Translations under genes and position numbers: made by a program
The notes under the pieces: model-generated
What the model was told of the DNA's origin: nothing
Databases searched by the model: none
The model's input: only the letters and a program-made list of their open reading frames with translations
Shown here: positions 10,838-47,821 of the stretch, one piece after another
Layout of the letters: the number at the start of each line of letters is the position of its first letter
Numbering within the stretch: the first letter of the stretch is position 1
Assembly: GCA_020248985.1 (NCBI GenBank)
Contig: JADCGL010000009.1
Coordinates: 22,552 to 86,551, forward strand
DNA: 64,000 nt
From: Telmatospirillum sp.
GTDB taxonomy: Bacteria; Pseudomonadota; Alphaproteobacteria; CACIAM-22H2
Direction of reading: 5' to 3'

Positions 10838-11908
10838 CTAAGCGGTCGCGGCCGCGCGCCGGTCGCGCAAAATCGCAAGCCGGGCTCTGAAATTCGGCGA
10901 TCCAGTCTCGGGCTCGAAGCCCGGTGCCGCATCGAGTTCGCGCCAACGGTGGCACGCGACATTTGTGCCCTCGGGTGTTGTCTCGAGCGGTGGGACTTCG
11001 GCAGCACAAAGCGGCTTTGCGTGCGGGCAACGCGTGCGGAAGCGGCAGCCCGACGGCGGAGCGATAGCGCTGGCAATGTCGCCGGGCAGAACGGTGCGTG
11101 CGCTACTTTGGCCCACAGCGGGGCGCACGACCGCAGCCAGCAAAGCCTGCGTATAGGGATGGCGAGGCCGCGCGAAGATGCGCGCAACCGGCCCGACTTC
11201 GACGAACCGCCCGAGATACATGACGGCGACGCGATCCGAGATGTGCGCAACGACCGCGAGGTCGTGCGACACCACGATCAGGCTGAGGCCAAGGCGCGCT
11301 TTCAGATCGATCAGCAGATTGATGATCTGCGCCTGGATCGAGACGTCGAGGGCGGCGACCGGCTCGTCGCCGACGATCAGGTCGGGAGCGACGGAAAGCG
11401 CGCGCGCAATGCCGATACGCTGGCGCTGGCCGCCCGAAAACTCGTGCGGGTAGCGGTCGCGCTGATGGGGTGCGAGACCCACGAGATCGAGCAGTTCGTC
11501 GACGCGCCTCTCGCGCGCAGCACCCGACGCGATCCCGTGCAGTTCGAGCGGTGCTCCCAGTATCTCGCGCAGTCGGCGCCGCGGATCGAGCGACGCGAAC
11601 GGATCCTGGAAGATCATCTGCATGCGCCGCCGCAACGGCCGAATCGTTGCTTCGGGCAACGCCGTGATGTCTTGCCCGTCGAACAGGACTTGGCCGGACT
11701 GGAGTGCGATCAATCGCGTCACGAGCCGCGCCAGAGTGGATTTGCCGCAGCCGCTTTCGCCGACGATCGCGAAGGTTTCGCCGCGCGCGACCGCAAGATC
11801 GACGCCATCGACCGCATGGACGGTGCGCCCACCGCCCAGACCGAACAAGCCTTTGCGCCCCGCAAAATGCCGTACCGCGCCGCGCAGTTCGACGATCGGC
11901 GCCGTCAT
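10838..11908 (-). CDS. ABC transporter ATP-binding protein, DppF/OppF type
   Basis: Walker [10 protein letters not shown], signature FSGGQRQRIGIARAL, Walker B LIVGDEPVAALD, and a C-terminal oligopeptide-type extension with Cys. The ATG at 11908 overlaps the upstream stop as ATGA. Confidence 0.92.
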   Translation of the reverse strand: MTAPIVELRGAVRHFAGRKGLFGLGGGRTVHAVDGVDLAVARGETFAIVGESGCGKSTLARLVTRLIALQSGQVLFDGQDITALPEATIRPLRRRMQMIFQDPFASLDPRRRLREILGAPLELHGIASGAARERRVDELLDLVGLAPHQRDRYPHEFSGGQRQRIGIARALSVAPDLIVGDEPVAALDVSIQAQIINLLIDLKARLGLSLIVVSHDLAVVAHISDRVAVMYLGRFVEVGPVARIFARPRHPYTQALLAAVVRPAVGQSSARTVLPGDIASAIAPPSGCRFRTRCPHAKPLCAAEVPPLETTPEGTNVACHRWRELDAAPGFEPETGSPNFRARLAILRDRRAAATA

Positions 11909-12891
11909 GCCGCAAGCCGCTCCAGCGGCGCCTTCCAGCATGCGACGGCGTGGTCCTCCGCGATCGCGGCAAGCGGCGGACGCGTCTCGCGGCAGCGTCG
12001 GTCGGCGAGCGGGCAGCGCGCGGCAAATCGACAGCCGCTCAATTCAAGTCCCGGCGGCGGCACGCTGCCCTCGATCGCCGTCAGCGGCCCCTTGCCACTC
12101 GACATGACCGGCATCGATGCCAGCAGGCCGATCGTGTAAGGGTGCTGCGGATCTTCGAACAAGCGCGCGACGCGCGTGCGCTCGACGATCGATCCCATAT
12201 ACATGACCGCGACCTCGTCCGCCGTTTCGCCGATCACGCCGAGATCGTGCGTGATGATTATCAAAGCCATGCCGAGATCCCGGCGCAGTTCGTCGAGCAG
12301 ATCGATGATCTGAAGCTGAATCGTAACGTCCAAGGCCGTCGTCGGCTCGTCGGCGATCAGCAGCTTCGGCTGGCCCGCCAGCGCCATCGCGATCATCACC
12401 CGCTGCCGCATGCCGCCGGACATCTGGTGCGGATAGTCGCGCATGCGCTGTTCGGGTGCGGCGATACGCACGCGCGCGAGCAGCTCGATCGCTTCGGCGC
12501 GCGCGGCGGTGAGGCCCAATCTGCGATGCGCGCGTACCGCCTCGGCGACCTGATCGCCGATCGTGAAAACGGGATTGAGCGACGTCATCGGCTCCTGGAA
12601 CACGAAGCCGATCTGGCCGCCGCGGACCTTCTGCAGTTCGGCCTCGCCGAGTTCGAGCAGATCGCGGCCCATGAAAACGGCGCGACCGGAAACGATCTGC
12701 GCGCTTGATTGTGGCAGAAGCCCCACCAGCGACAAGGCCGTGACAGACTTGCCGCAGCCGCTTTCGCCAACGATGCCGAGGGATTTGCCGGGTTCGAGCA
12801 CGAAGCCGACGCCGTCGACGACTCGGACTGGCCGCCCGCGCGTCTCGAACTCGATCGCGAGATCTTCGACCTGCAGCAACGGCGAAACCAT
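11905..12891 (-). CDS. ABC transporter ATP-binding protein, DppD/OppD type
   Basis: Trimmed to the ATG at 12891 ([15 protein letters not shown]). Walker A GESGCGKS, signature [15 protein letters not shown], Walker [13 protein letters not shown]. Confidence 0.92.
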
Positions 12892-13703
12892 CACAGCCCC
12901 GGATGCCAGAAGCGTTTCCCGGCCAGTGCAGCCGTCGCGTCGCGCTTGGCCAGCAGCACCACGGCCTTCGACGCAACGGCCGCGCACATCTCCACCGACG
13001 CTTCGGACGGCCGGCGCTCGCGCGTCGCACGGTTCGACGCAACGGCGCACACGCAGCCCGCGCGGAAGCCCATCAGGCCCGCAAGCACAAACAGGGTAGC
13101 GGCTTCCATTTCAACATTTGCGACGCGCTGTTGCCGCAGATCGTCGATCAATGTTGAAAAATGCGACGGACGGTAGCCGGTCGGCGGCGGATTGTCCTGG
13201 CCTGCGAAAAACGAGTCCACACTCGCCGAAATGCCGACCGTGTAGGTCGCACCGAGCGATTCGGCCGCCTCGATCAGGGCCAGCGTGACCGCGTGGTCCG
13301 CGATCGCAGGATAGCCCGCATCGACATAGGCGTCTGCGGCGCCCGAGCGCCGCAAGGCGCCCGAACTGATGACAAGCGAACCGCAGGCAATATCGGGCTG
13401 GAGGGCTGCACAGGTTCCGACGCGGATGAACGTGTCGACGCCGACATCGTGCAATTCGACCGCAGCTATGTCGGTCGAGGGTCCGCCGATCCCGGTCGAA
13501 CACGCGCCGAGCGCCACGCCGTCGAGCATGCCGCGGCCGACGCGAAATTCACGGTTGTTGGAAACTTCCTCGTAGCTCGCCCAGCCGCGCCCGATCAAGG
13601 GCACGCGCGCCGGATCGCCGGGGAGCAACGCGTAGCGGGGCAGATCGCCTTTGGCGACAAGAACATGCGCTTTGCGCGGCGCGGGCGTGCCCGTACTGGT
13701 CAT
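12891..13703 (-). CDS. Nucleoside phosphorylase, PNP/UDP-1 family (uridine/purine nucleoside phosphorylase-like)
   Basis: Trimmed to the ATG at 13703. Sequence LLPGDPARV..I, GMLDGV.LGACSTGIGGPS..IA.VEL...GVDTFIRVGTCAALQ and ANVEMEAATLF. First gene of the minus-strand operon with the two ATPases. Confidence 0.8.
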   Translation of the reverse strand: MTSTGTPAPRKAHVLVAKGDLPRYALLPGDPARVPLIGRGWASYEEVSNNREFRVGRGMLDGVALGACSTGIGGPSTDIAAVELHDVGVDTFIRVGTCAALQPDIACGSLVISSGALRRSGAADAYVDAGYPAIADHAVTLALIEAAESLGATYTVGISASVDSFFAGQDNPPPTGYRPSHFSTLIDDLRQQRVANVEMEAATLFVLAGLMGFRAGCVCAVASNRATRERRPSEASVEMCAAVASKAVVLLAKRDATAALAGKRFWHPGL

Positions 13704-13876
13704 TTGCGCGCCAACCGGTCCCTCGCGTAGACGGTGCGATAGATGCAAATTTTTGCCAAAAGCATTCGCAAGCTTAGTAACTCGACTTCTGCCATGCAAG
13801 CATATCGGATGTGGCGTGCGCACAGACGCTGCACTAACATGTTGACATCGACGTACTGTGAAGAGGACTTCAGAAG

Positions 13877-14773
13877 ATGAACCGCGTTTTTGTCCTTGGA
13901 AACGCGACCATCGATGTGGTCTTGAATGCGGCACGCCTGCCGGGTCCCGGCGAAACTTGCCTCGCCGAGGGCATGGTGCGCTGTGCCGGCGGCAAAGGCC
14001 TCAATCAAGCGCTCGCCGCCGCTAATGCCGGGGCCAATTGCGTGTTCGCAGCACCGATCGGCAGCGACAGCGAAGCAGCGTATCTGCGGGAAACGGTCGC
14101 CGGATTCCACACGATTTCGGCGCGCTGGATCGCGATGCCGCATCCGACTGATCATTCGTCGATCTGGGTGGCAGGCTCCGGCGAAAACATGATCCTGTCG
14201 AGCGCGCATTGCGCGCGCGCACTCACATCTTCGCAAGCGCGCACGGCACTGGCCGATCTTGCGCAAGGCGACACGCTGTTGGTCCAGGGAAATCTAACGG
14301 CCGAATCCACGCGCGAAGTCCTTGGCCTTGCGCGTGCGCGCGGCGCGATCACGCTGCTGAACACCGCGCCGATCGCCTGGGACATGCGCGCTTGTCTCGC
14401 CCTGTGCGACGTTGTTCTGGCGAACGCGGTCGAATGTGCGCTGCTTGTCGGCAGCGCAGACGCATCGGCGCTTCGCGCTGCCGGAGCCGGAACGGCAATC
14501 GTAACGCTCGGCGCAAAGGGCGCGACCGTCGCAGGAGCGGGCGGTCTTGAGCAAGTGTCGGCACCACCGGTCGCAGCGATCGACACTGCCGGCGCCGGCG
14601 ACGTTTTTGCCGGCGTTGTTGCAGCTCTCCTGTGCGAAGGCCGAGATATCCGGTTCGCGGCACAGGCCGCTGTCCACGCGGCTTCGCTGTCAGTTACCCG
14701 TCGCGGTACCACCGCATCGTTTCCAACATGCGACGAAATGGCGGCGATACTGGCAAACCTCGATGCGACTTGA
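13877..14773 (+). CDS. PfkB-family carbohydrate kinase (ribokinase-like), copy 1
   Basis: N-terminal VLGNATIDVV....LPGPGET, GGKGLNQA, and the C-terminal DTAGAGDVFAG anion-hole motif. Confidence 0.85.
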   Translation: MNRVFVLGNATIDVVLNAARLPGPGETCLAEGMVRCAGGKGLNQALAAANAGANCVFAAPIGSDSEAAYLRETVAGFHTISARWIAMPHPTDHSSIWVAGSGENMILSSAHCARALTSSQARTALADLAQGDTLLVQGNLTAESTREVLGLARARGAITLLNTAPIAWDMRACLALCDVVLANAVECALLVGSADASALRAAGAGTAIVTLGAKGATVAGAGGLEQVSAPPVAAIDTAGAGDVFAGVVAALLCEGRDIRFAAQAAVHAASLSVTRRGTTASFPTCDEMAAILANLDAT

Positions 14774-15873: not shown

Positions 15874-18800
15874 CTAGGCGTGGAAAACGAAGTCGGCGGC
15901 CATTCCTCCCGTGATTGTCGTCACACCCAGCAAGGTTACGGTCGTACCGGAGCCAAGAGTGATCGTCGCATTGCCGCCCGAGTAGGTCGTCGCGGCTTGA
16001 ACGTCCGCAATGCTGGCAAACGAGGCGAAGGCCGCAATATCGATCTGGTCGGTGCCCGAAGAAAAGCTCGCGATCGTGTCCGCACCGCTGCCCATGACGA
16101 ACGTATCGTTGCCGGCTCCGCCGGACAGCGAATCGTTGCCGCTGCCGCCGATCAGCGTGTCGTTGCCGTCGCCGCCGACAAGCGTATCGTTACCGGAGCC
16201 ACCATCGATCCGAGCCCCCGTGCTGCCGGCGACCGTGATGTTGTCGGCGGAATTGCCGCCGGTAATCGTCTCGACATCCGTTGCCGTGACTCTGTTTGCG
16301 AAATTGCCGAGGCGAAGCACGTCCGAACCCGCTCCCAAATCGACCTGGCCAGCCGTCGACGCGTTTCCAAGCGTAACCGTGTCCGCGTCGGTCCCACCGA
16401 CGATGGTCTCGACATTCGTCACCGTCAGCGTGTTGGCGCTGTCGGACAGGGTCAACCGATCGGTCCCGGCCCCGAGATCGATCAAGCCTGCGGTCATCTG
16501 CGCGCCAAGCGTTACCGTGTCGGCGGCACCGCTGCCAACAAGCGTTTCCACGTTCGAGACCGTGACGGTGTTGCCCGTACTGCCGCCCAACGCCAGACGA
16601 TCGTTGCCGGCCGCAAGATCGATCGACCCGCTCGTCGTCGCGGTGGCCAGCACGACCGTATCGGCAAGCGATCCGCCGGTGAGCGTTTCGACGTTCGAAA
16701 CCGTCAGCGTATTGGCGAAATTGCCGAGCACGAGTTCGTCGTTGCCGTCGCGCAGATCGACGGAACCTGTCGTCATCGCAGCACCAAGTGTCGCCGTATC
16801 GTCGCCGGTACCGCCGATCAGCGTTTCGACGTTTGCGACCGTCAGCGTATTCGCGAAATTGCCGAGCACCAGACGATCGTTGCCGGCTGCTAGATCGAAG
16901 CTGCCTGACACGACCGCCGTCGCCAGCGTGACGGTGTCCGCACGCGTGCCCGCGACAAGAGTTTCGACATTCAGCACCGTCAGCGTGTTGGCGAAGTTGC
17001 CGAGCACAAGCCGGTCGCTGCCCGCCAGCAGGTCGATCGTGCCGGCCGTCACTGCTGTGCCATACGTGATCGTGTCGTTGCCGGTATTGGCGACGATTGT
17101 TTCAACGTTCAAGACCGTCAGCGTATTGGCCGTGCTGTCGAGAATCAGACGGTCGGCACCGGCTCCCAGATCCACCGTGCTGCCCGCCTGGGCGCCGACC
17201 AATGTGACCGTATCTGCACCCGCACTGCCAACAAGCGTTTCGACATTGGCGACCGAGATCGTGTTGCCGGAAGTCCCGCCCAAAACCAAGCGGTCGTTGC
17301 CGTCCGACAGATCGACCGATCCACTCGCCAATGCTGCGCCGAAAGCGACCGTATCGGCGAGCGTTCCGCCGGTTACGCTCTCGACATTCGCGACCGTCAG
17401 CGTGTTCGCGAAGTTGCCGAGCACGAGCGCGTCGTTGCCGCCTCGCAGATCGACGGAGCCCGAAGTCAACGCCGTGCCGATCGTCACCGTGTCTGCGGCC
17501 GTGCCGCCGACCAAGGTTTCGACGTTGGCGACTGCGAGCGTGTTGACGAAGTTTCCGAGCGTCAATCGATCGATACCGGCCAGCAGATCGATCGTGCCGG
17601 CCGTCATGACCGTGCCGAGCGTAACCGTATCCGCGCGCGTACCCGCAACCAGCGTTTCGACGTTGAGAACCGTCAGCGTGTTGTTGAAATTGCCGAGCAC
17701 CAAACGGTCGCTGCCGTCCGCCAGATCGATGCTCCCCGAAACGACGGCGGTCCCGAAGGTGATCGTATCGTCGTCGGCATTGGCGACCAAGGTTTCGACG
17801 TTCAGAACCGTAAGCGTGTTCGCTACGGCGTCGAGGACCACGCGGTCGTTGCCGCCGCCCAGATCGATCGTGGTACCTGCCTGGCTGCCGATCAGCGAAA
17901 CCGTGTCGGCGCCCGAACTTCCGACGATCGTTTCGACATTCGCGATCGCGACCGTATTGCTACCGCCGCCCAAAATGAGCCTATCGTTGCCCGCCACGAG
18001 ATCGACGGATCCGCTGGTGATCGCCGCTGCGAGCGTGACCGTGTCCGCAAGCGACCCGCCGGTGACGGTTTCAACATTGGCGACCGTCAGCGTGTTTGCG
18101 AAGTCGCCGAGCACGAGCGCATCGCTGCCGCCGCGCAGATCGATCGAGCCCGAACCCATCGCCGTCGCGAGCGTCGCGGTGTCGTCCGCCGTTCCACCGA
18201 CAAGGGTCTCGACGTTCGCGACCGTGAGCGTGTTGGCGAAGTTGCCCAGCACGAGCCGGTCGCTGCCGGCCAGCAAATCGATCGTGCCAGACGTGATTTC
18301 AGTGCCGAGCGTGATCGTATCCGCCCGCGTGCCCGCTACCAGCGTTTCCACGTTGAAAATCGTCAGCGTATTGGCGAACTGACCCAGCACCAGGCGGTCG
18401 CTGCCATCGAGCAGATCGACGGTGCCGGACGTGACCGCAGTGCCAAAGGTGACCGTGTCGTTGTCGGTGTTCGCGACCAGCGTCTCGACATTCAGCAGCG
18501 TCACGGTGTTGGCCGTCGTATCGAGAATCAGGCGGTCGGAGCCCGTACCTAGATCGATCGTGGTTCCGGACTGGCCCCCGAGCAGCGTAATCGTGTCGGC
18601 GCCAGCACTGCCGATCAGCGTCTCGACATTCGCGACGGCGCCGGTATTGCCGGTGCTACCGCCCAGAACCAAGCGGTCGTTGCCGTCCATCAAGTCGACC
18701 GTGGCACCCGTTTGGATGCCGGCCCCCAGTGCGACGGTATCGGCAAGCGAACCGCCGGTAACGGTTTCGACGTTCGTGACCGTGGCCGTATTGGCGAAAT

Positions 18801-21800
18801 CACCAAGCACCAGCGCATCGGTGCCGGCGCCGAGATCGACCGATCCCGTCGTCATCGCCGCCCCGATCGTCACGGTGTCGGCGCCGGTACCGCCGACCAG
18901 CGTTTCGGCGTTGCTGACGGTCAGCGTGTTGCCGAGATTGCCGAGGACCAGCCGGTCCGACCCCGCCCCGAGATCGACATTTGTGCCCGACTGGCTGCCC
19001 GCCAGCGTGACCGTGTCAGCACCGCTGCCGCCGATCAGTGTTTCGACATTCGCGACCGTAAGCGTGTTCGCCGCACTCGATAGTACGAGGCGGTCGTTGC
19101 CCGCCAAGAGATCGATGTTGCCCGACGTGACGGCTGTGCCCAGCGTGATCGTATCGTCGTCGGTATTCGCGACCAACGTCTCGACATTCATCACGGTCAG
19201 CGTGTTGGCCACGGTGTCGAGGATCAGGCGATCGTTGCCCGCCCCCAGATCGACCGTACCGCCCGACGGCGCGCCGACCAGCGCAACCGTATCGGCACCC
19301 GTGCCGCCGACGATGGTTTCAACATTGACGACCGTCAGCGTGTTGGCGAAGTTGCCGAGCACAAGCCGGTCGTTGCCGTCGACCAGATCGACCGTGCCTG
19401 CCGTCGCCGCAGCCCCGAGCGTTACCGTGTCGTTCTCGGTATTGCCGACCAATGTTTCGACATTCAGCACCGTGATCGTGTTCGCCGCGGTGTCGAGGAT
19501 CAGCTGGTCGTTGCCCGCCCCCAGATCGATCAGGGCGCCCAATTGGCTGCCGTAGAGCGTAACCGTGTCGGCTCCGGTACCGCCGACCACCGTCTCGATG
19601 TTGGACACCGTGATCGTGTTGCCAGCCGTGCTGCTCGCCAGCACTAGCCGGTCGTTGCCTGCGGAGAGATCGATCGAGGCATTTGTTGTCGCGGCACCCA
19701 GCGTGACCGTATCCGCAAGCGAGGCGCCGACGATCGTTTCGACGTTGCTCGCCGTGAGCGTATTCGCGAAATTGCCGAGGGACAGCGAATCGTCGCCGTC
19801 GCCCAGATCGACCAAGCCGACCGTCATCGCCGTGCCGATCGTCACCGTGTCGGTTGTGGTGCCGCCGACGAAGGTTTCGACATTCGTCGCCGTAAGCGTA
19901 TTGGCAAAATTACTCAGCACCAGACGGTCGTTGCCGGCCCCAAGATCGACGTTGCCGTCGATCATCTGGCTCGCCAACGTGATCGTTGCGGCAAGCGATC
20001 CGCCGACGACCGTCTCGACATTGAGGACAGTCAGCGTATTGGCGAAGTTGCCCAGCACCAGACGGTCGTTGCCGTCCCCCAAATCGATAGTCCCCGCCGT
20101 GATGGCCGTTGCGACCGTAACTGTGTCGTCCTCGGTTCCGCCGACCAAAGTTTCGACATTGGCGACTGTCAGCGTATTGGCTTGGCTGCCGAGAGTCAGA
20201 CGGTCGTTGCCGCCCAGCAGATCGACAGTGCCCGACGCAGCCGCCGTTCCGAGCGTGACCGTATCCGCGCCCGCACTGCCGATCAGCGTTTCGACATTGA
20301 AGACGGAGATTGTGTTGCCCGACGTGCCGCCCAGAACCAGGCGATCGCTGCCGCTCGACAGGTCGATGGTTCCGCTAGTCGTTGCGGCTCCGAGCGCAAC
20401 CGTATCGGCGAGCGAGCCGCCGGTCAGCGTTTCGACGTTCGCGACCGTCAGCGTGTTCGCGAAATCGCCCAAGAACAGCTGGTCGTTGCCCGCGCCCAGA
20501 TCGATCGAGCCGGAACCCAGTGCGGAACCGATCGTCACCGTATCGTCGGTCGTCCCGCCGACCAAGGTTTCGACGTTCGACGCCGTAAGTTCGTTGGCGA
20601 AATTGCCGAGCGCAAGACGGTCGGAACCTGCCCCCAGATCGACCAAACCGTCAATCGCTTGGCTACCCAAGGCAACTGTATCGGCAAGCGAACCACCGAT
20701 CAGCGTTTCAACGTTCGTGGCCGTCAGCGTATTGGCAAAGCTGCCCAGTACGAGACGGTCGCTGCCGTCGAGCAGGTCGATGGCGCCGCCCGTCACGGCC
20801 GTGCCGAACGTGACCGTATCGTTGTCGGTATTGGCGACAAGCGTTTCGACGTTCAGCACCGTGAGCGTGTTGGCCACGGTGTCAAGGCTCAAGCGATCGT
20901 TGCCGGCCCCCAGATCGACCGTCATGCCCGCTTGGCTGCCGATCAGCGCAATCGTGTCGGCTGCCGCGCTGCCGATGAGCGTTTCGACATTCGTGACGGC
21001 CCCCGTATTGGCTGCACTGCTGCCCAGGATCAGGCGATCGTTGCCTGCTCCCAAATCGATCGTCGCACCCGATCCGATGGCCGAGCCGAGCGTGACCGTA
21101 TCGGCAAGCGAACCGGCCGTGACGGTTTCGACGTTTGTGAGCGTCAGCGTGTTGGCGAAGTCGCCAAGGACGAGCGCGTCGCTGCCGGCCCCGAGGTCGA
21201 CGGCACCCGCGCTCATCGCGGCCGCGAGCGTCACCGTGTCGGCGTCGGTTCCGCCGACCAGCGTTTCGACGTTGCTTGCCGTCACCTCGTTGGCAAAATT
21301 GCCGAGCACCAATCTGTCGGCACCCGCCCCAAGATCGACCGTGGTGCCCAACTGGGCGCCGACCAGCGTCACGGTATCGGCGCCGGAACCGCCAACCAGC
21401 GTTTCGACGTTCGCAACCGCAAGCGTATTGGCCGCCGTACCACTCGCCAACACGAGGCGGTCGTTGCCGTCGGAAAGATCGATGCTACCGGCGGCCATCG
21501 CCGTACCGAGCGTGATGCTGTCGTTGCCTACGTCGGCGACCAGGGTTTCGACGTTCAGAACGACAAGCGTATTGGCGGCACCAGCGCTGTTGAGAATCAG
21601 GCGATCGTTGCCGGAGGCCAGATCGACCGTCGTGTCGGACTGGCCGCCAACCAACGTGACCGTATCCGCACCCGAACTGCCGATCAGCGTTTCGACATTT
21701 GCGACGGCGATGGTATTGCCCGCCGTGCCGCCCAGAATCAAACGGTCGGCGCCGGCGGCAAGATCGATGGACCCGCTGGCAAGCGAGGCCCCGAGCGTGA

Positions 21801-24800
21801 CCGTATCGGCAAGCGATCCACCGGTCAGCGTTTCGACGTTTGCCAGCGTCAGGGTATTGGCAAAATCGCCCAAAGTCAGTCTGTCGCCGTCGCCGCCGAG
21901 ATCGATAGAACCGGACGTCATGGCCGCCGCGATCGTCACCGTGTCGTCTTCGGTACCGCCAACCAAAGTCTCGATATTGGCGACGGTCAGCGAATTGGGG
22001 AAGCTGCCCAATACCAAGCGGTCGTTGCCGGCACCCAGATCCACCGAACCGTCGAGCATCCGGCTGCCCAGAGTAATCGTATCCGCAAGCGAACCACCCA
22101 CCAGCGTTTCAACGTTCGTCGCCGTCAGCGTATTGGCAAAGCTGCCGAGCACCAGACGGTCGTTGCCGGCTTGCAGATCGACGGTGCCAGCCGTCACGGC
22201 CGTTCCGAACGTGATCGTGTCGTTGCCTGAATTGGCGACCACGTTTTCGACGTTTAGCACCGTCAGCGTGTTGGCAGTCGTATCGAGGATCAGGCGGTCG
22301 TCGCCCGCCCCCAGATCCACCGTCGTGCCCGACTGCATGCCAACCAGCGTGACGGTATCGGCACCCGTCGCACCGACGATCGTTTCGGCATTCGCGACCG
22401 TGACCGTGTTGGCGGCCGTCCCGCTCGACAGCACCAGGCGGTCGTTGCCCGCCAGCAAATCGACGGTGCCGGCAGTGATGGCTGTACCGAAGATAATCGT
22501 GTCGTTGTCGGTGTTGGCGACCAGCGTTTCGACGTTCAGCAAAGTCAGCGTATTGGCTGTGGTGTCGAGGAACAGGCGGTCGTTGCCGGCCCCCAAATCT
22601 ACCGTGGCGCCCGATTGGCCGCCGGCCAGCGTCACCGTATCGGCGCCGCCGCTGCCGACGATCGTTTCGACGTTCGCGACCGTCAACGTATTGCCCGTAG
22701 TACCGCCCAGAACCAAGCGATCATTGTCGGCCAATAGATCGATCGAGCCATTCGTCAGTGCGGCACCCAGCGTGACTGAGTCGCCAAGCGCTCCGCCGAC
22801 CAGCGTTTCGACATTTGTAGCGGTAACCGTATTGGCAAAACTGCCAAGTGCCAGCGTATCGTTGCCGGCCCCCAGATCGACCGAAGCCGACGCAGTTGCC
22901 GAACTGAACGTAACCGTGTCTGCGGCCGTGCCGCCGATCACAGTTTCGGCGTTGGCGACCGTCAGCGCGTTCGCGGAATTGCCGAGAACCAGACGGTCGG
23001 CGCCCGCACCCAATTCCACGGACGTGCCCGACTGGCTGCCGACCAACGTGACCGTATCCGCACCGGATCCACCGACGATCGTTTCGACATTCGCAACCGC
23101 AACCGTGTTGGCGCCAGTTCCGCTTGCGAGCACCAAGCGATCGTTGCCGGCCGCCAGATCGATGCTGCCGGATGTTGCAAAAGCGCCGAACGTGACTGTA
23201 TCGTTCCCGGTGTCGCCGACCACGGTTTCGACATTCAGTACCGCCAGCGTGTTGGCGGTTGCATCGAGGATCAGGCGGTCATTGCCCGCCCCGAGATCGA
23301 TTGTGGTGCCCGACTGGCTGCCAAGCAGTCTAATCGTGTCGGCGCCAGCGCTGCCGACCAAAGTTTCGACATTGAGAACCGTGATCGTGTTACTGGAAGT
23401 ACCACCAAGAACCAAGCGATCGTTGCCGGCCAACAGATCGATGGAGCCGGCGACCATCGCGGCGCCGAGCGTGACCGTATCGCCCAGGGCGCCGCCTGTG
23501 AGCGTTTCGACGTTCGAAACCGTCAGCGTATTGGCGAAACTGCCGAGGACAAGTGCATCGTTGCCGCCTGATAGATCGACCAAGCCCGCCGTCATGGCCG
23601 TCGCAATCGTGATTGTGTCTTCGTCGGTGCCGCCGACCAGCGTTTCGACGTTGGCCGCCGCAAGTTCGTTGTAGAAATTGCCGAGCGTCAAGCGATCGTT
23701 GCCCGCCCCCAGATCGACCGAAATGCCGAGCTGGCTGCCGACGAGCGCGACCGTATCGTTGCCGGAACCGCCGACCAGCGTTTCGACATTCGCAACGGTG
23801 AGCGTGTTGGCGCCAGTACCGCTCGCCAGAATAAGGCGATCGTTGCCCGCCGAAAGATCGACGCTGCCGGACGCGACGGCAGTACCGAATGTGACCGTGT
23901 CGTTGCCGATATCGCCGAGCACGGTTTCGACGTTCAGAACCGTAAGCGCATTCGCTGCGCCGGCGCTGTTCAAGACCAAGCGGTCGGCATCCGCCCCCAA
24001 GTCCGCAGTGGAGCCCGACTGGCTGCCGACCAGCGTGATCGTGTCCGCACCCGCACTGCCGATCAGCGTCTCGACATTCGCGACGGCAGCCGTGTTCCCC
24101 GACGTGCCGCCGAACGTCACGCGATCGCTGCCAGCCGCAAGATCGATCGACCCGCCGACCATTGCGGCGCCCAACGTGATCGTATCGCCAAGTGCGCCGC
24201 CCGTAAGGGTTTCGACGTTCGAAACTGTCATGGCATTGGCAAAACTACCCAGCACAAGCGCATCGTTGCCGCCGCCAAGATCGATCGCGCCCGACGTCAT
24301 TGCCGAGGCGAGCGTCACGCTGTCTTCGTCATTGCCGCCGACCACGGTTTCGACGTTGCTGGCCGTCACTTCGTTGAAGAGATTGCCGAACACGAGGCGG
24401 TCATTGCCTGCCCCAAGATCCACATTGGTGCCCAGCTGCGTGCCAGCGAGCGTGACGGTATCGGCAGCGGAACCGCCGACCAGCGTCTCCACGCCCGCGA
24501 CCGTCAGCGTGTTGCCGGCCGTACCGCTCGCCAATGTCAGACGGTCGTTGCCGGACTGGAGATCGACGCTGCCGTCCGTTACGGCCGTGCCGAACGCAAT
24601 CGTGTCGTTGTCGACATTGGCGACCAATGTTTCGACATTCAGTACCGTGAGCGTGTTGGCTGTCGTGTCGAGAACGAGACGGTCGTTGCCGGCCCCCAAA
24701 TCCACGGTGGCGCCGGTCTGGCTTCCGACCAAATTGACCGTATCGGCGCCCGAACTGCCGACGATCGTTTCGGCGTTTGCGACCGAGACCGAATTTCCCG

Positions 24801-27800
24801 CACTTCCGCCCAGCGTCAGACGATCGCTGCCGCCGAGCAGGTCAACGCTGCCCGCCGTCATGGAAGCGCCGAAAGTGACCGTGTCGTTGCCGGTATCGGC
24901 AACCAAGCTCTCGACGTTCAAGATCGTTAGGGTATTCGCAAGACCCGCACTTTGCAGAATCAGGCGATCGGCGCCGGCTCCCAGATCGACGGTGGAGTTC
25001 GACTGACTGCCGACCAGCGTGACCGTATCCGCACCGCCACTGCCGATGACTGTCTCGACGTTGGCCACGGCTACCGTGTTGCCGGAGGCGCCGCCGAGCA
25101 CCAGACGATCGTTGCCAGCCAGAAGATCGACCGAGCCGCTTGCCAGTGCGGCGCCGAGCGTGACCGTATCGGCAAGCGAAGCGCCGGTGATGGTTTCGAC
25201 GTTTGTGAGCGTCACCGTATTGGCGAAGCTGCCGAGGACGAGTGCGTCATTTCCAGCACCCAAATCCACGGCGCTGGAACCTGCCGCCGTCGAGACCGTC
25301 ACGCTGTCGTCGCCCGTGCCGCCGACCAGCGATTCGACATTGCCGACGGTCAGCGTGTTGGCAAGATTGTCGAGCGCCAAGCGGTCGGCACCCGCCCCGA
25401 GATCCACCGCCGTAACCACCTGGCTGCCCGCTAGCGTGACCGTGTCGGCACCCGTGCTGCCGACCAGCGTTTCGACATTCGCAACCGTGAGCGTGTTGGA
25501 GGCCGTGCCGTTCGCCAGAACCAGCCGATCGTTGCCGTCCAGCAGGTCGATGCTGCCCGACAGGACAGCCGAGCCGATCGTGACCGTATCGTTGTCGCTG
25601 TTGGCGACCAGGGTCTCGACGTTCAGCACGGTGAGCGTATTGGCCGTGGTGTCGAGGATCAGCCGGTCGGCGCCAGCGCCCAAATCTACCGTTGTGCCGG
25701 TCTGGCCGCCAATCAGCGCAACCGTGTCGGCGCCCGTACCGCCGAGAATGGTTTCAACGTTGCTCGCCGTCAGCGAATTGGCGAAGTTTCCGAGCACGAG
25801 ACGGTCGTTGCCAGAAGAAAGATCGATCGAACCGTTGGTTGCGGCCGAACCCAGTGTCACCGTGTCCGCGAGCGTTCCGCCGGTAGCCGTTTCGATATTC
25901 GTGGCCGTCAACGTGTTGGCGAAGTTGGCGAGCGCAAGCGCATCGCTGCCTGCCCCCAAATCGACCAGGCCCGAACTCATCGCGGCGCCAAGCGTCGCCG
26001 TGTCGTCGGCAGTGCCGCCAACCAAGGTTTCGACGTTGCTTGCCGTCAGCGTATTGGCGGAATTGCCGAGCGCGAGACGATCCGCACCCGCGCCCAGGTC
26101 GACGCTGCTGCCCGACTGGCTTCCGATCAGCGTGACCGTATCGGCGCCAGCGCTGCCGATCAGCGTTTCGACATTCGCGACCGCGACTGTATTGGCAAAA
26201 GTTCCGCTCGACAGCACCAAGCGGTCGTTGCCGGCCAGCAGGTCGATCGTGCCCGATGTGACAGCCGTGCCGAACGTAATCGTATCGTCGTCGCTGTTGG
26301 CGACCAAACTCTCGACATTCAGCACCGTGACAGTATTGGCGGCGGCGTCGAGAATCACGCGGTCGGTACCTGCCCCCAGATCCAACGTGATGCCCGCCTG
26401 GCTGCCGACAAGAGTGACCGTATCCGCAGCGGCGGTGCCAATCAGCGTTTCGACATTCGCGGCGGAAACCGTGTTGCCCGTCGTGCCGCCCAACACCAGG
26501 CGATCGTTGCCGGCCAAAAGATCGACGGAGCCGTCCGTCAGAGCAACGCTCAGCGTGACCGTATCGGCAAGCGATCCGCCCGTGAGCGTTTCGACATTTG
26601 CGAGCGTAAGCGTGTTGGCAAAACTGCCCAACTCCAACGAATCGCTGCCCGCACCGAGATCGATCGAAGCCGAATTCAGCCCAGCCGCGATCGTGACCGT
26701 GTCGTTGTCGGTGCCGCCCACGAGCGTCTCGACATTGGCCACCACCAGCGTGTTGGCAAAGTTGCCGAGCGCGAGACGGTCGTTGCCGGCGAGCAGATCG
26801 ATGGTGCCGGATATGATGGCCGTGCCAAGCGTGATCGTATCCGCGCGCGTGCCCGCAACCAGGGTTTCGACGTTGAATAACGTGGCCGTGTTGTTGAACT
26901 GGCCCAGCACCAGACGGTCGTTGCCGTCGAGCAGATCGACGGTGCCGGACGTGATGGCGGTGCCGAACGTGATCGTGTCGTCGCCAGCGTTGGCGACGAG
27001 GGTCTCGACGTTCAGAACCGTCAGCGTGTTGGGAGCCGCATCGAGGGAGAGGCGGTCATTGCCCGCGCCGAGATCGACCGTGCCGTCCGTCTGGCTGCCG
27101 ACAAACACAACCGTGTCGGCACCAGCGCTTCCAATCACCGTTTCGACGTTCGATACTGAGACCGTGTTGCCCGTGCTGCCGCCGAGGATCAATCGGTCGT
27201 TGCCGTCCGAAAGGTCGATCGACCCGCTTGCCGTTGCCGCACCGAGCGTCACCGTGTCGGCAAGCGCCCCGCCGGTCAGCGTTTCGACGTTCGTAACGGT
27301 CAGCGTATTGGCGAAGCTGCCCAGTGCGAGCGCATCGTTGCCCGCCCCAAGATCGACGACGCCCGAACTCATTGCCGTCGCGATCGTCACCGTATCCGCA
27401 CCGGTGCCGCCCACGATGGTTTCGGCGTTGGCCACCGTCAACTCGTTGGCGAAATTGCCCAAGACAAGGCGGTCGTTGCCCGCGAGCATGTCGATGGTAC
27501 CCGACGCGATCGCCGTCCCCAGCGAAATCGTATCCGCGCGGGTACCCCCAACCAGGGTCTCAACGTTGAGGACTGTCAGCGTATTGTTGAAATTGCCGAG
27601 AACCAGCTGGTCGTTGCCGTCGCGAAGATCGATTGAGCCGGCGGTCACGGCTGTGCCGACCGTGATCGTGTCGTTGTCGATATTGGCGACCAACGTTTCG
27701 ACGTTCAGCACCGCGATCGTATTCGCCGCCGCGTCGAGAATAAGCCTGTCGGCGCCGGCACCGAGATCGACGGTAACGCCCGACTGGCTGCCAACCAGCG

Positions 27801-27888
27801 TGACGGTATCGGCGCCAATGCCACCGGTTATGGTGTCGGCGACGGAGTAGGTGAAATTGCCCCCTGAATTTCCAAGCGAGACCGGCAT
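15874..27888 (-). CDS. Giant (4,004 aa) acidic repeat protein with a C-terminal RTX block; probable T1SS-secreted Ca2+-binding surface or adhesin-like fibre
   Basis: Single uninterrupted 12,015-nt ORF. The ATG at 27888 is preceded by GGGTGGA. No signal peptide. About 83 tandem 46-aa units (consensus NVETLVGGTGADTVTLGAAMTSGSVDLGAGNDRLVLGNFANTLTVA). Four GGxGxDxLx nonapeptides and a roughly 70-aa tail at the C-terminus. Confidence 0.9.
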   Translation of the reverse strand: MPVSLGNSGGNFTYSVADTITGGIGADTVTLVGSQSGVTVDLGAGADRLILDAAANTIAVLNVETLVANIDNDTITVGTAVTAGSIDLRDGNDQLVLGNFNNTLTVLNVETLVGGTRADTISLGTAIASGTIDMLAGNDRLVLGNFANELTVANAETIVGGTGADTVTIATAMSSGVVDLGAGNDALALGSFANTLTVTNVETLTGGALADTVTLGAATASGSIDLSDGNDRLILGGSTGNTVSVSNVETVIGSAGADTVVFVGSQTDGTVDLGAGNDRLSLDAAPNTLTVLNVETLVANAGDDTITFGTAITSGTVDLLDGNDRLVLGQFNNTATLFNVETLVAGTRADTITLGTAIISGTIDLLAGNDRLALGNFANTLVVANVETLVGGTDNDTVTIAAGLNSASIDLGAGSDSLELGSFANTLTLANVETLTGGSLADTVTLSVALTDGSVDLLAGNDRLVLGGTTGNTVSAANVETLIGTAAADTVTLVGSQAGITLDLGAGTDRVILDAAANTVTVLNVESLVANSDDDTITFGTAVTSGTIDLLAGNDRLVLSSGTFANTVAVANVETLIGSAGADTVTLIGSQSGSSVDLGAGADRLALGNSANTLTASNVETLVGGTADDTATLGAAMSSGLVDLGAGSDALALANFANTLTATNIETATGGTLADTVTLGSAATNGSIDLSSGNDRLVLGNFANSLTASNVETILGGTGADTVALIGGQTGTTVDLGAGADRLILDTTANTLTVLNVETLVANSDNDTVTIGSAVLSGSIDLLDGNDRLVLANGTASNTLTVANVETLVGSTGADTVTLAGSQVVTAVDLGAGADRLALDNLANTLTVGNVESLVGGTGDDSVTVSTAAGSSAVDLGAGNDALVLGSFANTVTLTNVETITGASLADTVTLGAALASGSVDLLAGNDRLVLGGASGNTVAVANVETVIGSGGADTVTLVGSQSNSTVDLGAGADRLILQSAGLANTLTILNVESLVADTGNDTVTFGASMTAGSVDLLGGSDRLTLGGSAGNSVSVANAETIVGSSGADTVNLVGSQTGATVDLGAGNDRLVLDTTANTLTVLNVETLVANVDNDTIAFGTAVTDGSVDLQSGNDRLTLASGTAGNTLTVAGVETLVGGSAADTVTLAGTQLGTNVDLGAGNDRLVFGNLFNEVTASNVETVVGGNDEDSVTLASAMTSGAIDLGGGNDALVLGSFANAMTVSNVETLTGGALGDTITLGAAMVGGSIDLAAGSDRVTFGGTSGNTAAVANVETLIGSAGADTITLVGSQSGSTADLGADADRLVLNSAGAANALTVLNVETVLGDIGNDTVTFGTAVASGSVDLSAGNDRLILASGTGANTLTVANVETLVGGSGNDTVALVGSQLGISVDLGAGNDRLTLGNFYNELAAANVETLVGGTDEDTITIATAMTAGLVDLSGGNDALVLGSFANTLTVSNVETLTGGALGDTVTLGAAMVAGSIDLLAGNDRLVLGGTSSNTITVLNVETLVGSAGADTIRLLGSQSGTTIDLGAGNDRLILDATANTLAVLNVETVVGDTGNDTVTFGAFATSGSIDLAAGNDRLVLASGTGANTVAVANVETIVGGSGADTVTLVGSQSGTSVELGAGADRLVLGNSANALTVANAETVIGGTAADTVTFSSATASASVDLGAGNDTLALGSFANTVTATNVETLVGGALGDSVTLGAALTNGSIDLLADNDRLVLGGTTGNTLTVANVETIVGSGGADTVTLAGGQSGATVDLGAGNDRLFLDTTANTLTLLNVETLVANTDNDTIIFGTAITAGTVDLLAGNDRLVLSSGTAANTVTVANAETIVGATGADTVTLVGMQSGTTVDLGAGDDRLILDTTANTLTVLNVENVVANSGNDTITFGTAVTAGTVDLQAGNDRLVLGSFANTLTATNVETLVGGSLADTITLGSRMLDGSVDLGAGNDRLVLGSFPNSLTVANIETLVGGTEDDTVTIAAAMTSGSIDLGGDGDRLTLGDFANTLTLANVETLTGGSLADTVTLGASLASGSIDLAAGADRLILGGTAGNTIAVANVETLIGSSGADTVTLVGGQSDTTVDLASGNDRLILNSAGAANTLVVLNVETLVADVGNDSITLGTAMAAGSIDLSDGNDRLVLASGTAANTLAVANVETLVGGSGADTVTLVGAQLGTTVDLGAGADRLVLGNFANEVTASNVETLVGGTDADTVTLAAAMSAGAVDLGAGSDALVLGDFANTLTLTNVETVTAGSLADTVTLGSAIGSGATIDLGAGNDRLILGSSAANTGAVTNVETLIGSAAADTIALIGSQAGMTVDLGAGNDRLSLDTVANTLTVLNVETLVANTDNDTVTFGTAVTGGAIDLLDGSDRLVLGSFANTLTATNVETLIGGSLADTVALGSQAIDGLVDLGAGSDRLALGNFANELTASNVETLVGGTTDDTVTIGSALGSGSIDLGAGNDQLFLGDFANTLTVANVETLTGGSLADTVALGAATTSGTIDLSSGSDRLVLGGTSGNTISVFNVETLIGSAGADTVTLGTAAASGTVDLLGGNDRLTLGSQANTLTVANVETLVGGTEDDTVTVATAITAGTIDLGDGNDRLVLGNFANTLTVLNVETVVGGSLAATITLASQMIDGNVDLGAGNDRLVLSNFANTLTATNVETFVGGTTTDTVTIGTAMTVGLVDLGDGDDSLSLGNFANTLTASNVETIVGASLADTVTLGAATTNASIDLSAGNDRLVLASSTAGNTITVSNIETVVGGTGADTVTLYGSQLGALIDLGAGNDQLILDTAANTITVLNVETLVGNTENDTVTLGAAATAGTVDLVDGNDRLVLGNFANTLTVVNVETIVGGTGADTVALVGAPSGGTVDLGAGNDRLILDTVANTLTVMNVETLVANTDDDTITLGTAVTSGNIDLLAGNDRLVLSSAANTLTVANVETLIGGSGADTVTLAGSQSGTNVDLGAGSDRLVLGNLGNTLTVSNAETLVGGTGADTVTIGAAMTTGSVDLGAGTDALVLGDFANTATVTNVETVTGGSLADTVALGAGIQTGATVDLMDGNDRLVLGGSTGNTGAVANVETLIGSAGADTITLLGGQSGTTIDLGTGSDRLILDTTANTVTLLNVETLVANTDNDTVTFGTAVTSGTVDLLDGSDRLVLGQFANTLTIFNVETLVAGTRADTITLGTEITSGTIDLLAGSDRLVLGNFANTLTVANVETLVGGTADDTATLATAMGSGSIDLRGGSDALVLGDFANTLTVANVETVTGGSLADTVTLAAAITSGSVDLVAGNDRLILGGGSNTVAIANVETIVGSSGADTVSLIGSQAGTTIDLGGGNDRVVLDAVANTLTVLNVETLVANADDDTITFGTAVVSGSIDLADGSDRLVLGNFNNTLTVLNVETLVAGTRADTVTLGTVMTAGTIDLLAGIDRLTLGNFVNTLAVANVETLVGGTAADTVTIGTALTSGSVDLRGGNDALVLGNFANTLTVANVESVTGGTLADTVAFGAALASGSVDLSDGNDRLVLGGTSGNTISVANVETLVGSAGADTVTLVGAQAGSTVDLGAGADRLILDSTANTLTVLNVETIVANTGNDTITYGTAVTAGTIDLLAGSDRLVLGNFANTLTVLNVETLVAGTRADTVTLATAVVSGSFDLAAGNDRLVLGNFANTLTVANVETLIGGTGDDTATLGAAMTTGSVDLRDGNDELVLGNFANTLTVSNVETLTGGSLADTVVLATATTSGSIDLAAGNDRLALGGSTGNTVTVSNVETLVGSGAADTVTLGAQMTAGLIDLGAGTDRLTLSDSANTLTVTNVETIVGGTDADTVTLGNASTAGQVDLGAGSDVLRLGNFANRVTATDVETITGGNSADNITVAGSTGARIDGGSGNDTLVGGDGNDTLIGGSGNDSLSGGAGNDTFVMGSGADTIASFSSGTDQIDIAAFASFASIADVQAATTYSGGNATITLGSGTTVTLLGVTTITGGMAADFVFHA
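16090..16203 (-). other. Canonical RTX nonapeptide block (4 copies) in the giant protein
   Basis: GGSGNDTLV GGDGNDTLI GGSGNDSLS GGAGNDTFV, read from the reverse complement of 16090..16203. Confidence 0.9.
16204..27800 (-). repeat. Tandem array of about 83 diverged 138-bp (46-codon) units inside the giant ORF, with a 5-unit (about 0.7 kb) super-period
   Basis: I hand-counted the N[VAI]E[TSN] unit boundaries in the translation. Units are 46-48 aa. The copies are diverged at DNA level, not identical. Confidence 0.85.
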
Positions 27889-28218
27889 TGTCCACCCAAT
27901 TGGCTAAGTCGTCTTCTGACAACAAGAAAAACTTATAGTATTGTTAAGGTCGTAAACCCAAAGATTTTTTTGCGACGTCACGCATTGCAGGGAGCCGCAC
28001 GAAAATGAAAACCTCGGTATTCTAGAACAAAGACTAAACATACGACGTCGCACGGACGATCGGTGCCTTCAGCTTAGGCTTTTCGGTTTGAACAACGGCG
28101 CGAATTCAACTCTCTGATGTAGATAAGAAAATACGCAGTCAATTCAAAAAGGCGCATCGGCCACAGCGCGCGTTCCGACGGCCCCATTTTCGAACTTTAT
28201 CCATCACAGAAACAGTTT

Positions 28219-28228
28219 ATGTATACAT
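28219..28228. promoter_or_regulatory. Perfect 10-bp palindrome ATGTATACAT, candidate GntR-family (VanR-like) operator
   Basis: Fits the GT-Nx-AC core of GntR-family operators. A second copy lies 84 bp downstream. Confidence 0.4.
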
Positions 28229-28302
28229 TACTCCGTGACTTGCCAGCGAGAACTCTATTTTATCTTGATTTATTGCGGATCGCGGTTAATATTTTTCTGG
28301 TG

Positions 28303-28311
28303 ATGTATACA
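28303..28311. promoter_or_regulatory. Second copy ATGTATACA (8-bp palindromic core TGTATACA), 11 bp upstream of the vanA start
   Basis: Same 9-mer as at 28219. The position overlaps the vanA translation-initiation region. Confidence 0.4.
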
Positions 28312-28321
28312 GCTGGATCAG

Positions 28322-47778: not shown

Positions 47779-47821
47779 TGCTAAACCCCTCCCCTCACAC
47801 GTATCTTTGCTGGAAAAAATC

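Follow-up and report, generated by a model that had tools for sequence, protein, structure and literature searches.

A stretch of 64,000 nucleotides from Telmatospirillum sp. (contig JADCGL010000009.1), in the following called the window, carries on its minus strand a 12-kb gene for a protein of 4,004 amino acids that is built almost entirely from tandem copies of one 46-residue unit. We consider it probable that this giant protein is a member of the RTX superfamily exported by a type I secretion system (T1SS), and that nearly its whole body is one non-canonical beta-roll, probably of the Ca2+ type. The kind of protein is known; a 46-residue repeat made of five strand-turn segments (a pentad) and a roll of 3,900 residues without a passenger are undescribed.

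RTX block, tail and N terminus

The sole match in a Pfam scan of the whole protein (E ≤ 1) was a C-terminal RTX block; nothing was found in the repeat region. PF00353 (HemolysinCabind) aligned with amino acids 3895-3929 (E = 4.6e-20; score 71.7 bits, cutoff 23). An RTX regular expression matched at amino acids 3896, 3905, 3914 and 3923, each 9 residues from the next, and Tandem Repeats Finder (TRF) reported a tandem period of 27 nt at 16102-16195 of the window. The tail of 73 residues behind this block ends in MAADFVFHA, that is, with an acidic residue followed by hydrophobic ones (D-F-V-F-H-A), and it aligns with the C termini of many RTX proteins that end in D-F-x-F/W-x. In NCBIfam, amino acids 3836-4001 align to the C-terminal part of serralysins. 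The tail would be the T1SS secretion signal. Judged by sequence, block and tail together place the giant protein in the class of RTX/T1SS substrates. The original prediction, made from the letters alone, had seen no recognisable domain; it overlooked the four nonapeptides as well as the T1SS-type tail. As for a signal peptide, which it had not seen either, only ~15-19 residues precede the first repeat, and neither a Sec-like N terminus or other signal peptide-like segment nor a separate N-terminal domain is evident. The reading frame cannot be extended upstream, and a complete homologue (locus L015) has a comparably short N terminus.

The repeat array

The motif [NGD][VAI]E[TSN] ('NVET') marks 83 unit boundaries, which lie 46 residues apart in 58 cases, 47 in 11 and 48 in 13; the same number of boundaries had been counted by hand before, with a unit of 46-48 residues. 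They enclose 82 complete units (amino acids 62-3870), preceded by an N-terminal unit that lacks the NVET start (amino acids ~16-61) and followed by a modified last unit (amino acids 3871-3894), ~84 units in total. The consensus of the unit is NVETLVGGTGADTVTLGTAQTSGSVDLGAGNDRLVLGNFANTLTVA, with which the consensus proposed originally agrees nearly exactly. Any two units share on average 57% of their amino acids (at most 89%) and 64% of their nucleotides, and TRF finds a period of 138 nt with 66-74% matches. The units of this old array have diverged and are far from being near-identical copies. Identity between units shows a maximum every five units (0.66 at a lag of five versus a background of ~0.54), with peaks at lags of 5, 10, 12, 17 and 22 units. 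This implies a putative super-repeat of five units (~231 amino acids, or 12.5 coils in the geometry described below) with occasional variants of seven units.

Predicted fold and architecture of the unit

AlphaFold2, supplied with units 72-76 and an alignment of 78 in-register blocks, gave an all-beta model with a predicted local distance difference test score (pLDDT) of 95.5 and a predicted template modelling score (pTM) of 0.89. Every unit has five strands in this model, as assigned with DSSP, at a spacing of 8-11 residues. A model of the last 365 amino acids runs unbroken from the units into the RTX block, with strands exactly every 9 residues. Among solved structures, the best match of Foldseek was 3P4G, the Ca2+-bound RIV beta-helix of MpIBP (E = 3.7e-4, probability 1.0, template modelling score (TM) 0.31). 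Further matches were the RTX blocks of CyaA and, for the C-terminal model, also RsaA, lipases and serralysins; all of these proteins are Ca2+ beta-rolls of T1SS substrates (PMC6891781, PMC3034196). The unit array is predicted to be an all-beta solenoid, that is, a beta-roll of the Ca2+ type. A resemblance to RTX turns and a Ca2+-stabilised beta-roll or beta-helix had been suggested originally, with modelling of a five-unit block as a check; that block gave the confident all-beta model, and the matches to 3P4G and CyaA lend further support to the idea.

Two turns of the unit (GGTGAD and LGAGND) keep the canonical Ca2+-binding signature of the GGxGxD type. The spacing of these two GxGxD-type turns (G7-D12 and L27-D32) is 20 and 26 residues instead of 23 and 23. 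Autocorrelation of the profile showed that the segment of the first turn (motif 1) matches the unit again at +11, +20 and +29, and a position matrix built from 450 canonical RTX nonapeptides has local maxima at unit positions 7, ~18, 27, 36 and 44, with positive scores only at 7 and 27. The classical nonapeptide rhythm persists in the unit in degenerate form.

Covariation was analysed by mean-field direct coupling analysis (DCA) of 2,170 unique pairs of adjacent units (effective number 1,826) from 206 proteins of the family. Offsets of 16-23 residues account for 42 of the top 60 couplings, offsets of 24-41 for none. By far the strongest coupling connects D32 with E3 of the next unit, at an offset of 17; in addition, the turn 37-41 couples with the turn 7-12 of the next unit, strand 42-45 with its strand 13-16 and strand 33-36 with its strand 4-6. 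The DCA couplings therefore indicate that every segment contacts the segment two places on. We conclude that the unit consists of five strand-turn segments of 9, 11, 9, 9 and 8 residues and that two segments make up one coil of ~18.4 residues, which amounts to 2.5 coils per unit. The original division of the unit into two halves of ~23 residues has to be given up: autocorrelation, RTX matrix and covariation agree on five segments of ~9 residues. Two other arrangements were considered. A unit of two coils of 20 and 26 residues was rejected because of the five evenly spaced DSSP strands and the absence of contacts at offset 26, and a three-sided helix of 23 residues because of the five strands and the covariation.

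In the five turns, RTX 'position 6' is occupied by E3, D12, G23, D32 and N41. Of the 82 units, 81-82 keep E3, D12, D32 and N41 invariant, and 57 have G23. Each edge of the roll reads D12, D32, E3', G23', N41', and the trios of acidic turns (D12, D32, E3') alternate between the edges. The three turns that are not RTX-like probably bind no Ca2+. With ~84 units and 4.8 Å per coil, the array would comprise ~210 coils and form a rod of ~100 nm.

Integrity of the gene

The reading frame of 4,004 codons contains no internal stop, as had been read from the sequence before (an uninterrupted 12-kb minus-strand open reading frame (ORF) for 4,004 amino acids). Between units, identity at the first, second and third codon positions is 0.68, 0.73 and 0.50, a pattern that reads as the signature of selection on the protein. 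Exact internal repeats in the DNA of the array all stay below 50 bp. Public assemblies gave no exact match to the protein. A metagenome-assembled genome (MAG) from a pond, Rhodospirillaceae bacterium D4_MAG_00038, is the nearest relative, and its gene is 83% identical in nucleotides. This MAG was assembled independently and carries the orthologue on two contigs, one with the N-terminal 9 kb (L002) and one with the C terminus (L001). Over 3,039 aligned codons the two genes are colinear, with 82.6% amino acid identity; the sole indel is exactly one 46-residue unit, the start codon and the N terminus (MPISLGNTGG...) are conserved, and the ratio of nonsynonymous to synonymous substitution rates (dN/dS) is 0.18 at a dS of 0.53. 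The unit count is nearly constant between the two orthologues (one unit apart) despite this dS.

An assembly artefact had been named originally as a possible refutation. The diverged units, the orthologue that is colinear unit for unit and the dN/dS of 0.18 together lead us to reject an artefact as well as a pseudogene: the gene is real and under selection. On the plus strand, between 16010 and 27850, antisense ORFs of 790, 377, 1,369, 442 and 943 amino acids overlap it. They arise because the sense frame is nearly devoid of TTA, CTA and TCA codons (17 of 4,004) and are not evidence of genes.

The protein has a mass of 389 kDa and a net charge of ~-354. Lys, Cys and Trp are absent from it, His occurs once, Pro four times and Tyr five times, and Thr amounts to 15%. 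Lys makes up 2.2% in the neighbouring genes versus 0 of 4,004 residues here; it is absent because the single basic position per unit (GxD-R/K-L) is occupied by Arg in this lineage, whereas it is Lys in Hyphomicrobium.

The features of the locus are compiled in Table 1. GGTGGA, found by inspection 3 nt upstream of the ATG, is likely the ribosome-binding site, and the AT-rich spacer of 433 bp presumably contains the promoter. A scan for terminators and promoters at the 3' end of the gene gave nothing.

Table 1 Features of the giant gene and its upstream region (positions in the window)
Feature	Position	Strand	Remarks
Complete coding sequence	15874..27888	-	4,004 aa plus stop; start and N terminus kept in orthologue; dN/dS 0.18
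N terminus, ~15-19 residues (MPVSLGNSGGNFTYSVAD...), then first unit without NVET start	27706..27888	-	no signal peptide-like segment, no separate N-terminal domain
82 complete tandem units, 46-48 aa	16279..27705	-	aa 62-3870; 5-unit higher-order periodicity
Modified last half-unit (DVETITGGNSADNITVAGSTGARI), joins array to RTX block	16207..16278	-	strands unbroken in C-terminal model
Canonical RTX nonapeptide block, four GGxGxDxUx repeats	16096..16206	-	aa 3895-3931; Pfam, TRF, regular expression, model
C-terminal 73-aa tail (…DQIDIAAFASF…TLLGVTTITGGMAADFVFHA)	15877..16095	-	presumed C-cap and uncleaved T1SS secretion signal
Intergenic region, 433 bp	27889..28321	-	44% GC vs 63% in gene; shared with divergent Rieske/VanA oxygenase gene; by inspection of the sequence

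Distribution of the unit

Literature searches yielded no description of the 46-residue unit, and a profile of five-unit blocks had no match among the sequences of the PDB. Pfam, at E ≤ 1, gave no Big, cadherin, VCBS or lectin match. Of the curated models, only that of the SMc04171 family in NCBIfam (NF046115, an equivalog) extends into the repeats; it aligns in eight stretches (amino acids 3529-4002 against model positions 131-573) and stays below threshold with 99.8 bits versus a cutoff of 625 bits. That the unit is not a described repeat family, as stated originally, is borne out by the lack of a Pfam, an above-threshold NCBIfam and a PDB match. It is not unique to the giant protein: the five-unit profile, searched against cluster representatives of 1.84 billion proteins, found the unit in at least 1,235 protein clusters (E ≤ 1e-3), mostly alphaproteobacterial. 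At E ≤ 1e-10 there were 603 cluster representatives and at E ≤ 1e-30 there were 172, with lengths up to 5,953 amino acids, and many of the carriers are proteins of 3,000-6,000 amino acids. A scan of species-representative genomes with the C-terminal 330 amino acids as query gave 73 loci, ~40 of them with giant ORFs of 40-110 unit copies. Their hosts include Hyphomicrobium, Micavibrio, Acetobacteraceae, Magnetospirillaceae, Azospirillum and Rhizobium, and the betaproteobacteria Chitinilyticum and Rhodoferax; H. zavarzinii ATCC 27496 has two adjacent giant repeat genes. The unit also occurs in 17 plasmid or chromid records, 15 of which are from Azospirillum. The source records give the family generic names ('Ca2+-binding RTX toxin-like protein', 'calcium-binding protein' or 'large repetitive protein'), and our literature searches found no experimental work on any giant member.

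In shorter relatives, unit repeats are fused to an N-terminal calpain-like peptidase domain (PF00648) or to a right-handed beta-helix of the pectate lyase type (PF13229); the enzyme-fused members are P0001, P0003, P0004 and P0008, and P0006, P0014, P0077, P0106 and P0115. The repeat may serve as spacer or secretion module in these proteins.

Genomic context

At the level of the family, the link to type I secretion is clear. In Hyphomicrobium (L006, L007 and L020), a T1SS-type ATP-binding cassette (ABC) exporter (ABC_membrane and ABC_tran) is encoded, together with a HlyD protein, divergently upstream of the giant gene. At L015, the genes behind that of a complete homologue of 3,337 amino acids encode, in this order, a TPR protein, an ABC exporter of the T1SS type and a HlyD protein; at L027 an ABC exporter is also adjacent.

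The neighbours of the giant gene in the window are ordinary metabolic genes: two convergent PfkB kinase genes downstream and the divergent oxygenase gene upstream. A set of RND efflux genes lies farther away, with an AcrB-family pump at 56286-59777 (-), a HlyD-type adaptor at 59378-60457 (-) and a divergent TetR regulator at 60573-61217 (+). The HlyD-type gene pairs with the AcrB pump; the set is no T1SS and has no relation to the giant gene. A region of high AT skew at 52-54 kb turned out to be an ordinary ORF resembling a polytopic membrane permease. The flanks of the orthologue (L001, L002) have no detectable similarity to the window on either side; therefore, the location of the gene is not conserved. 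The differing neighbourhoods in two fairly close relatives possibly came about through transfer or rearrangement. Megablast of the flank against plasmids returned only short ABC-transporter matches.

In ten related loci (L003, L012, L015 at 16353-18230, L023, L025, L031, L033, L034, L038 and L074 at 11892-14063), all outside the window, a conserved TPR protein of 600-720 amino acids adjoins the giant gene, mostly directly downstream and on the same strand. In both proteins scanned, the C-terminal half weakly matches GT9 heptosyltransferases and, in the L074 protein, also DUF6165. This layout suggests the TPR/GT9-like protein as a candidate protein glycosyltransferase, with the Thr-rich giant protein as substrate. 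Locus L074 (NC_016588.1, 269838-295744) is on plasmid AZO_p6 of Azospirillum lipoferum 4B and encodes a homologue of 2,736 amino acids (WP_244442703.1, 'calcium-binding protein'), whose gene sits among those for glycosyltransferases, methyltransferases, a DegT aminotransferase, an epimerase and a GDP-mannose 4,6-dehydratase. Sugar-nucleotide genes (NTP-transferase, dehydratase) also come after the T1SS genes at L006. In the window, genes for a GDP-mannose 4,6-dehydratase and an NAD-dependent epimerase/dehydratase are found at 47552-49835 (+), ~20 kb from the giant gene. Enzymes of this class are encoded beside homologues elsewhere, but a link in the window would be conjectural.

Proposed export and function

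Based on the biology of RTX proteins (PMC3034196, PMC6891781), the very acidic, Cys-free chain would remain unfolded in the cytosol, where Ca2+ is low. A T1SS encoded elsewhere in the genome would export it with the C terminus leading, and on extracellular Ca2+ the chain would fold coil by coil, beginning at the C-terminal cap. Binding of Ca2+ by the array is what we infer from the motifs, the net charge of -354 and the fold matches; the giant protein itself would be secreted. It has no ligand-binding or enzymatic domain according to Pfam and no N-terminal retention module. A place on the cell surface, as suggested originally, would be conjectural, since known RTX adhesins are tethered by such a module. 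Most likely, the product is an extracellular fibre, released or attached non-covalently, with a structural, adhesive or matrix role.

Several observations weigh against the assignment of the giant protein as a T1SS-exported beta-roll of the RTX superfamily. Three of the five turns have negative scores in the RTX matrix and are not RTX-like in sequence. The TM-scores to solved beta-rolls are low (0.2-0.3); therefore, the fold class agrees, but the geometry is unlike that of every solved example. The Ca2+ sites and the geometry of 2.5 coils rest on DSSP strings and covariation, and the last ~50 amino acids are modelled with a pLDDT below 50. Genes for the ABC, membrane fusion and outer membrane components of a T1SS were not found in the 64-kb window, and an adjacent T1SS is seen at only 5 of the ~40 loci of the repeat family. 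RTX proteins often have T1SS genes that are not linked to their own, so that the lack of a linked T1SS is compatible with membership in this class.

Other explanations were weighed against the same data. One is an S-layer-like or lipopolysaccharide-anchored coat, an analogue of RsaA from Caulobacter that is secreted by a T1SS and held by surface polysaccharide. We regard it as unlikely. Foldseek matches the C-terminal model to RsaA (6P5T; E = 0.02, probability 0.47), homologues lie in or beside clusters of sugar-nucleotide and glycosyltransferase genes (L006 and A. lipoferum p6), and the window has its own GDP-mannose dehydratase and epimerase genes at 47.5-49.8 kb. However, the match is weak, these sugar genes are 20 kb off and unlinked, there is no distinct N-terminal anchoring domain, and a uniform rod of 100 nm is unlike the known lattice-forming S-layer proteins. 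Giant size, a C-terminal RTX block, a T1SS-type tail and a top structural match to a domain of the adhesin MpIBP would all suit a cell-tethered RTX adhesin of the LapA/MpIBP/SiiE type, stalled in the outer-membrane channel of the T1SS and binding surfaces or cells with its long extender. Yet such a protein would be anchored by an N-terminal retention module, for which the ~15-19 residues before the first repeat leave no place; Pfam finds neither bacterial Ig-like (BIg) extender repeats nor ligand-binding domains, and LapG/LapD-type genes are absent among the window genes scanned, so that this explanation appears quite improbable to us.

We hold it to be very improbable that the protein is a surface-active binder of ice, minerals or polysaccharide that works, in the style of MpIBP RIV or insect antifreeze proteins, through flat Thr-rich beta-sheet faces. 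The top Foldseek match is indeed the ice-binding RIV domain, Thr reaches 15%, and two of the five strands carry T-x-T (DTVTL, NTLTV). But the sequence has no similarity to RIV, R-x-V and other rows come between those with T-x-T, without an evident uniform Thr array, Thr-rich faces are common to beta-solenoids in general, and the family occurs widely in Azospirillum and Hyphomicrobium, which are associated with soil and plants. To a pore-forming or MARTX-like toxin, with repeats for membrane insertion or translocation, we give hardly any credence: it shares the RTX class and the large size, but a hydrophobic pore-forming region, an effector domain and a cysteine-protease domain (CPD) are lacking, no Lys is available for RtxC-type acylation, and no acyltransferase gene is nearby among the genes of the window. 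A non-functional sequence, be it an artefact of assembly, a pseudogene in decay or an ORF that arose by chance in repetitive DNA rich in GC, can practically be dismissed. The antisense ORFs of up to 1,369 amino acids and the break of the related MAG's orthologue across two contigs might be taken in its favour, but the former are accounted for by the codon usage given above, exact repeats of ≥50 bp are lacking and third codon positions are far less conserved, the orthologue is colinear unit for unit with a dN/dS of 0.18, and the strong Pfam match and the family homology lie in the sense frame.

Beyond the favoured assignment as a T1SS-exported RTX beta-roll, a more far-reaching proposal can be made, to which we give a small chance: the pentad unit would be a distinct, undescribed Ca2+ beta-roll architecture that forms passenger-less rods of ~100 nm, modified in many lineages before or during type I secretion by the adjacent TPR/GT9-like candidate O-glycosyltransferase, acting on Thr-rich faces. 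If this is true, the rods would be glycosylated extracellular fibres of Alphaproteobacteria and form a new class. The recurrent TPR/glycosyltransferase-like neighbour provides a concrete, testable hypothesis on the role of these proteins. A uniform rod of ~100 nm that is switched by Ca2+ would suit the study of vectorial folding in type I secretion and could possibly serve as a scaffold in protein engineering. Because the unit is not modelled by domain libraries, more than 1,000 protein clusters are labelled only 'calcium-binding protein' or 'hypothetical'. With a profile of the unit, giant genes could be annotated better in Rhodospirillales, Hyphomicrobium, Azospirillum and related bacteria associated with plants and water.

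Comparison with known systems

The fibres of TpsA/FHA proteins, which are exported by two-partner secretion (TPS), are likewise giant, rod-like exoproteins built as beta-solenoids from repeats. The giant protein differs from them in its presumed secretion route and predicted coil geometry and has no Sec signal, no TPS domain, no Fil_haemagg match in Pfam and no adjacent TpsB. From MARTX toxins, in which A/B/C glycine-rich repeats flank effector domains and a CPD and which are encoded at an rtxHCA/BDE locus, it is set apart by the lack of effector and CPD domains and of homologues of rtxC, rtxH, rtxB, rtxD and rtxE among the window genes. SMc04171 of the alphaproteobacterium Sinorhizobium meliloti depends on TolC for its secretion (PMC2912261). 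It has 574 residues compared with 4,004. Its family is the only curated one with any alignment to the repeats, and with a score of 99.8 bits, below the cutoff of 625, the giant protein is not a member of it.

True members of the same family are the giant 'calcium-binding protein' genes of, among others, Hyphomicrobium, Azospirillum, Micavibrio and Acetobacteraceae (for example WP_244442703.1), whose products have 2,700-5,900 amino acids. They share the 46-residue unit, the short N terminus and the layout with an RTX block or C-terminal tail, but many have adjacent TPR/glycosyltransferase-like genes, T1SS genes or both, which the window does not have.

RTX adhesins such as LapA, MpIBP, SiiE and BapA have an extender of tandem Ig-like (BIg) domains and C-proximal ligand-binding domains, whereas the repeat of the giant protein models as a beta-roll. 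The closest solved structure, RIV of MpIBP from Marinomonas primoryensis (3P4G), is a non-canonical Ca2+-bound beta-roll of twelve 19-residue repeats (PMC6891781). Both rolls are continuous, have a D-x-U-x-U strand after the Ca2+ turn and would use only some of the turns for Ca2+. However, the two do not match at the sequence level, and the TM-score is 0.31. The RIV repeat (xGTGNDxUxUGGxUxGxUx) has one Ca2+ turn per 19-residue coil, all on one edge; in contrast, the giant protein has a period of 46 residues with five segments, and by covariation its acidic turns come in threes that alternate between the edges. RIV is also one domain of 300 amino acids in an Ig-repeat adhesin with a retention module, whereas the giant protein would be a roll throughout.

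Of the canonical RTX beta-roll, as in serralysin/alkaline protease, lipases, CyaA and HlyA (PF00353), the C-terminal block is a true member. The unit keeps the strand-turn rhythm of ~9 residues with two segments per coil of ~18 residues, and four of its five turns end in a residue that is invariant and either acidic or an amide; the giant protein, like canonical RTX proteins, is acidic, free of Cys and equipped with a C-terminal tail of like type. It differs in that the strands of the unit have two inward hydrophobic residues (xUxU) instead of one, in that the segments are 9, 11, 9, 9 and 8 residues long, and in that the RTX blocks known so far comprise 5-40 nonapeptides and are joined to an enzyme or toxin, whereas here a roll of ~3,900 residues would have no passenger. 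The giant gene thus shows how far the RTX nonapeptide principle may reach: to a predicted passenger-less roll of 3,900 residues, organised by a higher-order unit of 46 residues.

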